Shown here piece after piece: positions 44,701 through 56,700 of a stretch of DNA of 64,000 bases. This DNA comes from Escherichia coli (GTDB lineage: Bacteria > Pseudomonadota > Gammaproteobacteria > Enterobacterales > Enterobacteriaceae). The position numbers are program-made. The DNA lies in NCBI RefSeq assembly GCF_013315695.1, contig NZ_CP054353.1; one strand, written 5' to 3'. The stretch's first letter is position 1. Each line of letters starts with the position of its first letter.

Positions 44701-47700
44701 TCTTCGACAACGATGAGGATAAAACAGGTTCGGCAGCACTGTTGCGCTGTATCGAACAGGCCAGGGAGGGTATCCGTACCCTGCGCCAACAGTAACTTTT
44801 GCACCAGAACCAGTGAAGATCACTCACCCGATTTCACTTCCCTGACGTCAGCCTGAACACGGCTGGCGTTTTCATTTATAAACAGAAAGGAAAAATGATG
44901 ATGTCAGATACCACACTCTCCCGCCCGGAGGTGGTCAGCGGGCATACGGACGTTATCTATTCCACCTCAGTCTGCCACATTCTGGCTGTACGAAAGAGTA
45001 CACTGTTGCCAATCGACACAATTATCCGGCATCAAGTAAGCGATATCAGTTAACCGATATAGATGGGGAAGATGCTTTTATCCGGATTGGTTCTATCGCG
45101 ATGGTGCGAGTACCACTTGATGCAATGGAGCCTGTCGAGGAAGATGACGAGTAACAGAGCTCGGTATCTCAATCAGGACCTGATTGTCCTGGTTCGATGC
45201 CGAAAACCAGTGATTTTTCGTGTTGGTATCTGTGTTGGTATAGGATGGTGTTGTTTATTATTAACAATTTTAAATCATGAGGTTAAATCGCATGTTTGAG
45301 TCCGGTCTTCGCACCACATCGTATGCAAATCGAGTCGCTCAAGGGCGGCTTTTTTTGTACCTGTGTTTTCACTACTTTGTTTGCATGTAACGCTGATAAT
45401 CTAAGAACTTCGGAAGCCCCATTTCCATCAATGATGTTCATTCATCATCCTGAAAATTAAGTAGATATAAAACTTCATTGCCTTGGTCTAATGGCACAGA
45501 AATAGATTGCATTTGGCGAGTGGCATTCTTAGTGCGTCGTTGTTTAGTCATGAAACGATGCGTAAAATTGCTGATTTTATGTGTCAAAGTCCCGCAACCG
45601 GAGATGGCCTTACTTCAATGATCAACCACTATTGACGTATCCTTTTAATATCTTGATTCAATTCAGCAGGTTATCGTCCAAAGTACAGCGAAGAGAGAGA
45701 AAAGATGATTGGTACAACACCTTATCATGCGAAATATTTTGCGCATGAACTTTCCATTCTTCATTCAAACAATGGGGTGGACCGTCTGTCTCAATCGCTG
45801 TTTGATGCAAGCGTAGATCTAAACCCTCATCAAATTGAGGCGGCTCTTTTTGCTATCGAAAATCCGCTAAGCAAAGGTGTTGTGCTTGCCGATGAAGTTG
45901 GTTTGGGTAAAACCATTGAAGCTGGACTAGTGCTTTGCCAGTTGTGGGCTGAAAGAAAACGTAAACTGTTGATCATTTGTCCTGCTTCACTGCGTCGCCA
46001 ATGGGCGAGCGAGTTACAGGAAAAGTTCAATCTACCTTCTCAGGTGTTGGACGCGAAAATGTATAGCCAGCTTCAAAAAGAAGGGATCCATAATCCCTTA
46101 AATAATAAATCGATCACTATTATGTCATACCACTATGCTGCTCGGTTAGAAGAGAAATTGGTGGCTGAAATGTGGGATCTGGTTGTTATCGACGAAGCCC
46201 ATAAACTGCGTAATGCTCATCGAGAAAGCAACAAAATGGGGCAAGCGTTAAAGCGTGCGCTTGATGGGCGGAAGAAATTACTACTGACCGCAACGCCTTT
46301 ACAGAACTCGTTGATGGAACTGTATGGCATGTCGACGCTTATAGATGAACATACCTTCGGCGAAGTTAAAGCGTTCAGAAAGCAATATATGCAGGCAGAT
46401 AGCGATATTGCGGAGTTGAAGGGGCGATTGTCGCGTTTTATCAAACGAACTCTACGCAAGAATGTGCTGGAGTATATCAAGTATACAGAACGTAAAGCGA
46501 TCACTATTCCTTTCTATCCGAGCGAACAGGAGCAGGATCTTTATGAACGCGTACAAAAATTGCTTGAACGTGAGGATAGCTATGCCTTACCAAAACGACA
46601 CCGGCATCTGACGGGGCTTATACTCAGAAAACTACTTTCCTCAAGTACGAAAGCCGTATTGAATAACTTGCAGATCCTTAAGACTCGTTTAGAAAGGTTA
46701 AAGCTGGAAGGTATCGTTGAAGATGATATGGACATCATCCAACAGATCATAATGGATGATGATCTTGAAGATGACATCGTTGAAGATGCCGAATCAGTAG
46801 CGCCAGATACAGAGTGCAAATCTGTGGATTCAGATGCGCTTCAGGCAGAAATCAATGAGCTGGAATCACTCATTGTTAAAGCAGAACAGATTGGCACTGA
46901 TACCAAATCAAAAGAGTTGCTTTCTGGCCTGGAGCAAGGTTTTGCACAGCTTGCCGAAATGGGGGCTGCAAAAAAAGTCATCATCTTCACGGAGTCGATG
47001 CGAACTCAACAGTACCTTGCACATTTTCTGGAAAACAATGGCTACCAGGGAAAAGTAGTAACCTTTAGTGGCACAAACAATACACCGCAGGCAAACAAGA
47101 TCTACCAGCAATGGCGCGAGGAATATCAGGGATCTTCTCGTATTACCGGGTCGGCGCAAATTGATAAACGCTCGGCTTTGATCGACCACTTCAAAGATCA
47201 TGCTGAAATCATGATAGCTACAGAAGCTGCAGCTGAAGGGGTGAACCTGCAATTTTGTTCGCTACTGATCAATTACGATTTACCCTGGAACCCACAACGC
47301 ATTGAGCAGCGTATTGGACGTTGTCACCGATACGGGCAAAAATTTGATGTGGTTGTTATTAACTTCCTCAATCAGCGAAACCAGGCCGATCAACGCGTTC
47401 TTGAACTCTTAACTGAAAAGTTCAGCCTGTTTGATGGCGTGTTTGGCGCATCGGATAGTGTGCTTGGCAGCATAGAAAATGGTGTGGATTTTGAAAAAAG
47501 GATCCAGTCAATTTATGAGTCATGCCGTACCCCCGAGGAGATAGAGCTGGCTTTTGAAAGGTTGCAGAAAGAGCTGGAAGATGAAATCAATCTCAAGATG
47601 CAGAAGACGCAAGAACAGTTGCTTGAGCATTTTGATGAAGATATTCACGATATCCTTAAAATAAGGCTTGATGAAGCTCGGGAGCGCCTGGATAAAGTCG

Positions 47701-53700: not shown

Positions 53701-56700
53701 GGGTTGCATCTGGAAAAATTAGAGACACTGAATGTATTCGGTGTACGTGCCGATTACATGGCAACCTTTAAACAATACCTGGAAGATGAAGGGATTACGC
53801 CAAGTGACGAGATCCTTGAGCTGAATTTTGAAACTCGGCCAAATATGCCAGCAACCAGGCTTAAAACACTTAAGCTCAAAGATGGTTATAAAGATAATCA
53901 AAGACTCGGCTTTAAACGTGTCTATTTTCCCGAATTGTATGAAGTTCCTGCTGATTTTCAGGGGAAAATTAAGCAGCCGCATATTAAGCTGGACCTATAC
54001 CCGAAACTTGAGTCGATTGATACCAGCAGAAAAGGGGAAAATACTCCGGTTAACGTGCGTAATGAAGCGAAGTTAGATTATAAAATCATTAGTGCGTTTG
54101 ATTTTGATCGGCTTTATCTCGCCATTCAGAATTATAAACTACAACGCGGCTGGTCAAATTTACGTGTGGATAAACAACGTTTGATCGACTTTTGTACCGG
54201 TAAGACAAAGATCGGAAATAGTTGGTATACCCTTTTGATTCCAGCTTCAGAACTTGAGATTAAGCAATATGCAGATATTGCTAAGCAGGAAGATATTATG
54301 CTTCGTCTGCTGACTGATTATACTGATCGCTTTTACAACACATTGAAAAATGCTTATGAAGGTCAGTTTTATGAAGTCACGCAGGTGAAAGAAGATGATC
54401 CTGGTATGATCAAAATGTACCATTTCGAGATCGAAGAAACTGATGATGGGTTGGCATATGCCAGTCGGCTGGAACAATTACAACAATTGGTCATCGACGG
54501 CGAAATCGGTAAAGCAAAATCCTGGAGTGCATCCGGGATGGTTGCTATTACCTTTGATAAACATCTCTATTATCCACTTCTTTCGATTGAAAAAAATGCC
54601 AACATACCGCTAAAAATGCGACCGGCAGCACTGGGTGCATCAAGTGAGATTACTTTTGTCCATGATCTTCAGTCTTTTGTTGATTCGACAAAAGGGCAGA
54701 AAATTATTGGTGATAAAAGTTTATATCTGCTAAGAAATGCGGATTCTAAAAATAGAGGCCTGGGCTTTGCTACTGCGGGTAATTTTTATCCGGATTTCTT
54801 ATTGTGGTTAGTCGATGATAAAAGTGGTAAACAATGGTTAAGTCTTATTGATCCAAAAGGCATCCGCAATCTTAATCTTGATGATCCAAAGTTCGGATTA
54901 TATAAAGAAATCAAGAATCTTGAACATAAATTATCGGATGATAACTTATCATTAAGTGCATTTATTGTTTCTGAAACTTGTTATGTTGACTTAGTAAACG
55001 TACCTGATTCAAAAGAGAATCTGGAAGCCAGAAATGTGCTTTTTATTGAGGATACTGGTCCATTGTATCTGGAGAAATTATTCAGTAAGATGGTTAGCGA
55101 GTAAATAAATATGATTCTGCTCCATATCTCTGTGAGATATGGAGCAGATATTATCGCCAATGTGCAGGAATAATTAAGTCAAACGATTTTGCTGCATATT
55201 CAAGCATTTTTATTATTTCCCTGTGTCGTTCCTGGTCGAAAGACTGTCCATTTTTTCTACACTCTATAATCCCTTGTAATTCTTTTAGGTTAAACATATC
55301 AAGAAGATATAAATTTTTCCAGGTTGGTTGCCCGAAGAGGTTATAGACTGTTTCCGTAGCATCTCGTTCACTTGCTAATCTTTTCTCTCCTTCTATTCTT
55401 TCAAAAAATATTTCAGCTGTTTCTTTATCATCATAAGTATTTAATAATTTCATTATGATTTCCCTGATTAATGAATTGATATCACGATAATTATATCATG
55501 AATAGATGTAAATTTACTATATATATAAATTAGTGTACAATTCAACATACCAATTTTTTTTAATTTGTAATGTCGATTGGTTAATAATTGGATTCTCTTA
55601 TAATGAATATATATTTACTCTGACTAGAATATTTGTAAAAGTATTTTATATTGAGATTTTAAAATTGATTTGTGGCTATGTACTCATAAATAATACTTTC
55701 GGTGTCAGAAAATACTTTATCTATTACATTTAAAATCCTAGGTGAAAGATATATAATGGCTACCTCACCCCCTAAAAAACTCTTTCCGATGCCACTCTAC
55801 AACCCCTCAAAAGGGTAATTTTTACGCACCTGTGGCAACGCAATAATTTTTCCGTCAAAATCCCAGAATGACCTCTCAATGATCTCTCCGCCGTTTACCG
55901 CATCCAATACCAGTACCCGCATATTTTCATCCAGGCCAATCGTTCCTTTATCAAAGGCTTTATGATGTATCGCGCAAAGCGCCAAGCCATTGGGAATTTC
56001 ACAAGGGCCACCATGTTGTTTCCATTTTATATGTGTCGCTTCCAGTGAGACGGTGGAGTTGCCGTAACAAATATTAAAGCTACATATTGCGCACTGGTAG
56101 TTATAAGCGCGTAATACATGTTTGCGAAATAATGGGTCACGCTGCTTACGGATTTGCTGGAGAGCAAAAAAAGGCTCGTCAGCGATTTACTGGAAGCCAT
56201 TGATATCCCTGGCAGTGAAATAATTGCGATCATGCTCGCAAATTTTCTGCTGTTCAAGCCTGCAAGCGAAGATATATTACCTTGATCTCATATGTTTTTT
56301 TACTTCCTGTGTGCCCTAATTGCCATGCGATGTTGCACCGACGCAAACCGCCGTTTACGCCGGAGGAGTTAAAAGCGCTGATGGATGCGAATAAATCAAA
56401 TTAATGAACGCTCACCTTTCGCGCCAAAACCGCAAAATTGCTTTTACAAACCTGTCAGAAATAATTCCCCGACGGGCTGCCGCGCTGAAATGACTGCTTC
56501 GCAGTGCCGTCGTCCAGTTCTCCGGTGACCGGTACGCTGAACCGTAATATCCCGTGCTTAAATCGTCCGGATCTTCATCAGGCGCGTTCGTCAGTCCTCT
56601 TTCACCTTGTTGCTGGAAGTCGATGAAAATAATATTGGCTAAAACATTATTTTGATAATTGCCATAAATCGCTTCATACGCATGAGGGAAATTTTCTTTC

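Follow-up and report, generated by a model that had tools for sequence, protein, structure and literature searches.

In class 1 DISARM, ARMADA, and some BREX types, genes for SNF2-type motor proteins adjoin methylase genes, and the studies consulted here attribute no biochemical role to the SNF2 motor (10.1101/2025.09.22.677730; 10.1101/2025.09.15.676423; PMC11232893; 10.1101/2021.12.28.474362). ARMADA encodes the SNF2-like ArmA, the PglX-like (YeeA-related) methylase ArmB, and ArmC, which combines a YprA helicase (DUF1998) with a Vsr nuclease (10.1101/2025.09.15.676423). Each of the genes armA (SNF2), armB, and armC is required for ARMADA II defense (10.1101/2025.09.22.677730), and deletion of drmD and drmMI nearly abolishes the protection conferred by class 1 DISARM against one phage (10.1101/2021.12.28.474362). 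These results, obtained in analogous systems, indicate that such SNF2 partners matter. Here, we describe a cassette of three tightly packed, co-directional genes at positions 45705–55104 (plus strand) of a stretch of 64,000 nucleotides (nt) of Escherichia coli DNA (assembly GCF_013315695.1, contig NZ_CP054353.1; hereafter the window). The cassette lies in the leuX hotspot, which is the most occupied defense island of E. coli (PMC12707154), and encodes an SNF2-family ATPase (gene 1), a Type III Mod-type N6-adenine methyltransferase (gene 2), and a superfamily 2 (SF2) translocase–nuclease with the architecture of a Res subunit (gene 3). It is probably a horizontally acquired defense operon of the restriction–modification (RM) type with Type III architecture, in which a DrmD-like SNF2 motor is the third, ancestral partner.

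Organization of the cassette and assignment of the three proteins

The initial annotation, made from the sequence of the window, had described three large co-directional open reading frames (ORFs) with gaps of about 20 and 2 nt and had placed the Shine–Dalgarno sequence of the third gene within the second; both features were found as claimed. Gene 1 (45705–48596, plus strand) encodes 963 amino acids (aa). With the ATG at 48617 given by RefSeq, gene 2 (48617–51721, plus strand; 1034 aa) begins 20 nt behind gene 1; the mechanical start is a TTG at 48602 (1039 aa). The stop codon of gene 2 and the ATG of gene 3 (51724–55104, plus strand; 1126 aa) are separated by 2 nt, and the Shine–Dalgarno sequence of gene 3, GGAGGAGG, lies inside the final codons of gene 2. 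No terminator was detected between gene 1 and gene 2 in the terminator scan.

The SNF2 assignment of gene 1 was borne out by Pfam matches to SNF2-rel_dom (E = 1e-36) and Helicase_C (E = 3e-19) and by the motifs GLGKT, DEAH, TATPLQN, and QRIGRCHRYGQK in the translation. The SNF2 ATPase motifs I, II, III, and VI are intact and all invariant in 40 homologs, and the matches among solved structures include RapA, ISWI, and Rad54. The top family matches are DrmD models (PADLOC PDLC02619, 662 bits; NCBIfam DISARM_DrmD_b, NF038318, 667 bits), the latter with a score below the curated cut-off of 950 bits and an alignment confined to the core (aa 31–671). In the PADLOC ranking, DrmD is followed by BrxH, HmaA (195 bits), and the DpdE helicases. 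Behind the DrmD-like core (aa 31–684), the C-terminal region (aa 685–963) is conserved in the family, has a long coiled coil (aa 840–950) at its end, and belongs to no Pfam family; it resembles the C-terminus of DrmD weakly. Neither the Pfam search nor the scan of the C-terminal region revealed a nuclease or another effector domain in gene 1.

Gene 2 contains the Pfam domain N6_N4_Mtase and the motif order of the beta class, as the initial annotation had proposed. The DPPY motif (aa 501–504) is followed about 270 aa later by FAGSGTT (aa 775–781), with the recognition domain in between. A phmmer search yielded a match to EcoP15I Mod (E = 3e-25), so the protein is a beta-class N6-adenine Mod related to known Mod subunits, and it shows the Type III Mod fold. 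Its PADLOC matches are MTase_III (full length), MTase_II, and orphan-methylase models only. The protein is about 390 aa longer than EcoP15I Mod. Its conserved extensions (aa 1–470 and 830–1034) comprise, on the N-terminal side, a hairpin formed by a coiled coil (aa 34–123), a domain rich in beta structure, and a helical domain, and, on the C-terminal side, one further domain. None of these belongs to a Pfam family, but aa 237–469 are covered by another Type III Mod model of PADLOC. The best-conserved stretch of the Mod family, aa 124–165 (window 48986–49111; about 79% mean identity, many invariant aromatic or charged residues), is at the same time the least confident region of the AlphaFold model (pLDDT 30–45), and it is retained in loci lacking the SNF2 gene, too. 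This stretch may therefore fold only upon binding of Res or DNA. A tandem-repeat search detected no simple-sequence or phase-variation repeats in or before the mod gene.

In gene 3, a Walker A motif (GSGKT, aa 179–183), DEGH (aa 280–283), QxxGRGxR (QLFGRGVR, aa 634–641), and a YPDF...IDPKG stretch were identified. The structure model is confident (pLDDT 85) and, together with the motifs, displays an N-terminal SF2 ATPase followed by a C-terminal PD-(D/E)xK nuclease domain (54601–55101, plus strand), which is the architecture of Res. Four residues, E975, D1024, D1043, and K1045, are placed on the expected elements of the alpha–beta–beta–beta–alpha fold in the model. In 40 diverse homologs, E975 and D1024 are conserved without exception (40/40 each), position 1043 is D in 36 and E in 4, and position 1045 is K in 34 and H in 6 sequences. 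These residues are candidates for the catalytic residues of the nuclease. Pfam ResIII covers just aa 167–293 (E = 2.7e-7), and the only PADLOC match is REase_III, over the full length. Models of the DrmA, DrmB, DruE, and YprA type and the DUF1998, phospholipase D (PLD), and Vsr domains were not detected in gene 3 with PADLOC and Pfam. Across the three proteins, all motifs quoted in the initial annotation are present, and they are invariant or nearly so in 40 to 53 homologs from many phyla.

The regions left without assignment (Mod aa 1–470 and 830–1034, SNF2 aa 685–963, gene 3 aa 1–165 and 690–960) were scanned with Pfam as whole families and with NCBIfam and PADLOC as fragments. Apart from the match of Mod aa 237–469 and the weak similarity to the DrmD C-terminus mentioned above, these scans retrieved nothing beyond models of the proteins' own type.

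Conservation of the SNF2 gene with the Mod and Res-like genes

At 50% identity, the gene 3 family falls into 783 clusters (E ≤ 1e-30). For a survey of its gene neighborhoods, one genome per species was scanned, which resulted in 79 loci whose six-frame ORFs were searched with the three proteins. The loci cover Alpha-, Beta-, and Gammaproteobacteria, Planctomycetota, Acidobacteria, Actinomycetota, Spirochaetes, Chlorobiaceae, Chloroflexi, Nitrospirae, Kiritimatiellae, Melainabacteria, Firmicutes, and one archaeon. A mod gene adjoins the Res-like gene in 59 of the 61 loci with enough upstream sequence. In 38 loci, both flanks are present, and these were treated as informative for the SNF2 gene. 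An SNF2 homolog is adjacent and co-directional in 29 of them, upstream in 24 cases (once without a detected Mod) and in the order Mod–Res–SNF2 in the remaining 5. Together with three loci with incomplete flanks, the latter form a single clade in the Res tree, which comprises Pasteurellaceae, Neisseria, and Moraxella relatives. The synteny is accompanied by co-inheritance, as the pairwise distances of SNF2 and Res correlate (Mantel r 0.53, a value reached in 0 of 2000 permutations). Adjacency and correlation both support the earlier assumption that the SNF2 gene belongs to the operon, and we conclude that SNF2 is the ancestral and usual partner of the Mod–Res pair, which can be lost.

Some observations weigh against a defense operon with three ancestral components and Type III architecture. 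Eight of the 38 informative loci consist of Mod and Res only (one more is truncated), the Mod proteins of the SNF2-less loci have the same domains and conservation, and no Mod region was found that tracks the presence of SNF2. These loci suggest that SNF2 may be dispensable. The link between SNF2 and Res is also looser than that between Mod and Res, for which the Mantel r is 0.87. As to gene 3, neither phmmer nor a family profile yielded a match among the PDB sequences, the hhalign probability for EcoP1I Res was 1.7%, and sequence homology to Res of the EcoP1I/EcoP15I family was not found. Since its architecture fits Res, yet its sequence reveals no kinship to solved proteins or to EcoP1I Res, gene 3 has the Res architecture but forms a distinct family; the initial description as Res-like thus holds for the helicase and the PD-(D/E)xK nuclease in Res order, but does not extend to the sequence. 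Furthermore, no experiment on the family was found in the literature.

The main alternative to a three-gene ancestral unit, which we regard as unlikely, is an ordinary two-gene Type III RM system with an independent SNF2 gene in its neighborhood, either a stand-alone defense gene or a hitch-hiker. The loci with Mod and Res alone (8/38) and their unaltered Mod proteins would be expected in this case; however, these loci are scattered over the Res tree, as would be expected if an ancestor with three genes had lost SNF2 repeatedly. The correlation of SNF2 with Res is weaker than that of Mod with Res (0.53 < 0.87), but the SNF2 protein is the best conserved of the three (mean column identity 56% vs. 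41% and 34%). Unrelated defense genes do insert in these operons, and HmaA is an example of SNF2-based defense by a single gene (PMC11232893). An independent neighbor of this kind would, however, have to account for adjacency and co-direction in 29 of 38 loci from distant phyla in two fixed orders, for a spacing of 20 nt without a terminator between gene 1 and gene 2, and for the lack of a nuclease or effector domain in gene 1 itself.

Allele exchange, mobility, and genomic neighborhood

The whole cassette is present in 148 of 5,426 complete E. coli genomes, and about 149 genomes carry gene 1 with at least 95% identity. Carriers include the studied strains E24377A and 042. Among the E. coli cassettes, gene 1, gene 3, and both ends of Mod are 99%–100% identical, whereas Mod aa ~390–940 display only 14%–64% identity. 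This exchangeable core (49784–51436, plus strand) comprises the methyltransferase and target-recognition part and is the stretch with the lowest GC content (0.32). Of about 150 carriers, only 16 have the core allele of the window; NCCP12480, for example, carries an alternative one. Exchange of the recognition core implies that a single species harbors a large number of specificities, which could shape the host range of phages and the flow of plasmids between E. coli lineages.

The horizontal acquisition proposed in the initial annotation is supported by the location in the leuX hotspot, by the low GC content, and by a triad with 63% identity on conjugative IncF plasmids of Klebsiella and E. 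coli. A phage origin of the family was considered and rejected, as only one weak match was obtained in 50,697 phage records. The GC content amounts to 0.32–0.45 over the cassette and to 0.51–0.56 immediately upstream. The AT-richness relative to the upstream flank was therefore claimed correctly, but the immediate upstream neighbor is a CP4-57-like island rather than the fec genes, which are located about 26 kb upstream. The searched region of 10.5 kb (45000–55500) is 100% identical to E. coli isolate AF3.

The tRNA-3′-end-like remnant described in front of the cassette is real. Positions 45294–45316 (plus strand) match the 3′ end of tRNA-Leu (leuX) in a degenerate form, as seen in the alignment with the intact leuX of strain A20, and the terminator scan identified the leuX terminator hairpin behind it (45332–45351). 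In strain A20, the same cassette is located directly 3′ of the intact leuX (locus L082). The degenerate copy is an att-type remnant and marks an old island boundary. ARAGORN detected no intact tRNA in the window, and no Rfam family was found at 44.8–56 kb. At the other end of the cassette, a perfect hairpin is located at 55116–55148 (−26.5 kcal/mol, z = −5.95); its stem comprises 15 bp instead of the 14 bp noted before. Positioned between gene 3 and a convergent small ORF, it is probably a bidirectional terminator.

This small ORF (55151–55453, minus strand; 100 aa) converges on gene 3 and shares the terminal hairpin with it. In L002, L008, L012, L030, and L044, a homolog with 60% identity follows Res immediately and is encoded on the other strand. 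Such homologs, in the same position and orientation, were seen in Arsukibacterium, Shewanella, Pseudomonas, Thalassolituus, and an uncultured gammaproteobacterium. No match was obtained in PHROGs, NCBIfam, or PADLOC. The ORF may represent a clade-specific fourth or accessory component, which travels with the cassette in its closest gammaproteobacterial relatives.

In other taxa, further genes are embedded in the operon, either within the Mod–Res pair or in the interval from SNF2 to Mod. From reading their sequences, we take them to encode YhcG-like PDDEXK proteins, Fic proteins, proteins of the DUF262/DUF1524 type, and a pair of an ATPase and a DUF4276-like protein; the DUF4276 gene of the pair is annotated in a plasmid record. 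In eight loci (L005, L018, L019, L028, L032, L066, L074, and L080), mod and res are separated by an inserted gene of about 380 aa; by its sequence, the product resembles PDDEXK proteins of the YhcG/DUF1016 type. The same kind of insertion occurs in Type I RM operons. In the SNF2-less relatives L066 (3092–6166), L070 (839–6100), and L028 (823–5651), the genes directly upstream of Mod encode a NACHT and FGE-sulfatase STAND protein, a reverse transcriptase, and a helicase of the PbeA/Cas3-like type together with a 2-oxoglutarate (2OG)-domain protein. These defense-type genes indicate that the family is located in defense islands of distant phyla. For the Chlorobiaceae loci without SNF2, a large ORF in front of Mod was considered as a substitute motor and rejected, because it encodes a separate STAND protein with NACHT and FGE-sulfatase domains. 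On the IncF plasmid pEC316_2, an 81-aa XRE-type helix-turn-helix (HTH) gene overlaps the SNF2 start (L084, 2611–2856), and a homolog precedes Mod in the SNF2-less locus L003 (6436–6723); the gene is found neither in the window nor in the other loci. It may encode a regulator similar to controller proteins, and it was rejected as a general component of the system, because it was seen only on the IncF plasmid copy and in L003.

Just downstream of the cassette (~55765–56500), pseudogene remnants of a phosphorothioate-DNA-binding restriction endonuclease and of an HNH endonuclease were found, followed by a truncated nanS. These sequences appear to be what is left of genes that occupied the leuX hotspot previously. 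The CP4-57-like island (~30300–45200) is located between the fec region and the leuX remnant and includes genes for YfjI, a GTPase, Ag43, YeeR, an antirestriction protein, a JAB/RadC-like protein, and a YeeU/CbtA toxin–antitoxin pair, which places an antirestriction gene a few kb from a restriction-type operon. Further upstream, the fec operon (11.4–19 kb) is embedded in insertion sequence debris (IS600, IS3, IS1F, IS66) with genes of the lpxM/virK/capU type (~3900–25500); this content fits a large composite island at leuX.

Proposed mode of action

The genes present, their catalytic motifs and folds, the conserved neighborhood, the joint inheritance, the allele exchange, and the genomic location are shown by the results above, whereas the assembly of a complex, the site recognized, the rule for cleavage, the part played by the SNF2 protein, and the defense phenotype are inferred in the following scheme. 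Mod, probably as a dimer as in EcoP15I, would read a short asymmetric site via its exchangeable recognition core and would methylate one adenine at N6, by which the host DNA is marked. The gene 3 protein is expected to dock on Mod, to communicate along the DNA from unmethylated sites in an ATP-powered manner, and to cut incoming DNA with its C-terminal PD-(D/E)xK nuclease. The SNF2 protein would act as a double-strand DNA translocase working with the Mod–Res machine. It might drive or extend the long-range communication, strip proteins from the invader DNA, or assist methylation, as seems to be the case for the SNF2–methylase pairs in class 1 DISARM and ARMADA.

A more far-reaching version, which we put forward tentatively and rate as somewhat doubtful, is that the three genes form one machine and represent a distinct, ancient, phylum-spanning class of methylation-based defense, in which a DrmD-like SNF2 translocase is integral to a Type III-like Mod–Res complex. 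In this case, the SNF2 subunit would alter the rules of the enzyme, for example, in that a head-to-head pair of sites might no longer be needed for cleavage, or in that translocation by SNF2 might gate both methylation and restriction. In evolutionary terms, the family would then bridge the classical Type III RM systems and the SNF2–methylase modules found in class 1 DISARM, in ARMADA, and in some types of BREX.

A different mode of action, following the logic of DISARM or ARMADA, appears quite improbable. Here, the SNF2–methylase pair would mark self DNA, and the gene 3 helicase–nuclease would be triggered by structures of the invader DNA, such as free ends or single-stranded DNA, and would depend on unmethylated sites only in part. 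The ranking of the gene 1 matches (DrmD first, then BrxH, HmaA, and DpdE) and the gene order SNF2–methylase–helicase/nuclease, which equals that of class 1 DISARM and ARMADA II, are in accordance with such a mechanism, and all three systems are found in the leuX hotspot. The partner proteins, however, are of another kind. Gene 2 encodes a beta-class Type III Mod and not a gamma-class methylase of the PglX/DrmMI type, gene 3 is devoid of matches to DrmA, DrmB, DruE, and YprA and of DUF1998, PLD, and Vsr domains, and Mod–Res pairs of this family occur without SNF2. A present function as an epigenetic regulator with a phasevarion-like Mod, or a decaying relic without a defense role, is highly improbable, since, although many Type III mod genes are phase-variable regulators and the surroundings are rich in pseudogenes, the three ORFs are intact, gene 1 is kept at ≥95% identity in about 149 E. 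coli genomes, the catalytic residues are conserved, simple-sequence repeats are lacking in or before mod, and the recognition core is swapped as expected under selection by invaders.

The cassette offers the simplest setting of the SNF2–methylase pairing, with three genes, a recognizable Type III Mod, and a helicase–nuclease with clear catalytic residues. Its small size and its natural occurrence in E. coli, including strains already under study, make it directly amenable to genetic and biochemical tests of what the SNF2 partner does, and so to the question of how SNF2 motors act in methylation-based immunity. The annotation of defense systems and methylomes probably under-describes this large family.

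Comparison with described defense systems

The public records give only generic names for the three proteins. In a literature search, for which the RefSeq accessions of the three proteins were also used, no paper that names the triad or tests it was found; since the coverage was incomplete, this result amounts to absence of evidence. As a candidate name, the GI-leuX system EcoMI of ST131 was considered and rejected, because EcoMI is Eco31I and unrelated.

Compared with Hma (HmaA, an SNF2 protein with a NOV_C nuclease; the methylase HmaB; the ATPase HmaC), the cassette shares the combination of an SNF2 helicase with a methylase in a three-gene candidate defense operon, and gene 1 matches HmaA (195 bits). 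In contrast to Hma, gene 1 is devoid of a NOV_C nuclease, gene 2 does not match HmaB, and gene 3 encodes a helicase–nuclease and not an HmaC-type ATPase. An assignment to Hma was therefore rejected. ARMADA I and II (Bell et al., 2025, preprint) consist of the same three roles (SNF2 motor, methylase, helicase–nuclease), and the gene order is that of ARMADA II. The E. coli leuX hotspot and the concentration of variation in the methylase gene are also common to both. However, genes 2 and 3 match neither the PglX-like ArmB nor the YprA-like/DUF1998 ArmC, and a gene for the UvrD-like ArmD is not among the annotated neighbors. The cassette was thus rejected as an ARMADA system on the grounds that a YprA helicase and a PglX-like methylase are missing.

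As in class 1 DISARM (DrmD, DrmMI, DrmA, DrmB, DrmC), the gene for an SNF2 helicase stands immediately before that for an adenine methylase, with a helicase gene next in order, and the best family matches of gene 1 are DrmD models, including the weak C-terminal similarity. Gene 1 nevertheless remains below the cut-off of NCBIfam DrmD_b (667 vs. 950 bits) and does not qualify as a DrmD equivalog. A DrmA/YprA helicase, DrmB (DUF1998), and DrmC (PLD) are absent from gene 3 and from the annotated neighbors, which agrees with the absence of DISARM components stated in the initial annotation. Moreover, gene 2 is of the Type III Mod type and not of the DrmMI type, a distinction for which the presence of DrmMI/PglX models among those scanned is unconfirmed. 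The identity with DISARM was rejected because of the missing DrmA, DrmB, and DrmC and the score of gene 1 below the DrmD cut-off.

The closest agreement is with the classical Type III RM systems EcoP1I and EcoP15I. In the classical systems, a short asymmetric site is hemimethylated, cleavage requires ATP and two unmethylated sites in inverse orientation, and Res acts only when complexed with Mod. In both cases, mod is located upstream of res in one operon, and the partner protein combines an SF2 ATPase with a PD-(D/E)xK nuclease at its C-terminus. PADLOC labels both proteins of the cassette as Type III, and the full-length matches to MTase_III and REase_III show that the pair of gene 2 and gene 3 is already filed under this type; the models presumably descend from REBASE-derived sets. 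Unlike the classical systems, the cassette encodes a Mod protein that is longer by about 390 aa owing to conserved N- and C-terminal extensions, its Res-like protein of 1126 aa has no detectable sequence relation to EcoP1I or EcoP15I Res, and the conserved unit includes a gene for an SNF2 ATPase. The proposal of an atypical defense system is therefore justified with respect to the SNF2 partnership and the long forms of Mod and Res, but not with respect to genes 2 and 3 as such, which are covered by the PADLOC models for Type III RM. Taken together, the cassette belongs to a widespread Type III-like RM family with a DrmD-like SNF2 partner, for which no name was found. Its components are known and its RM pair is already catalogued; what is undescribed is the conserved SNF2 partnership, the extended Mod protein, and the distinct Res-like family.

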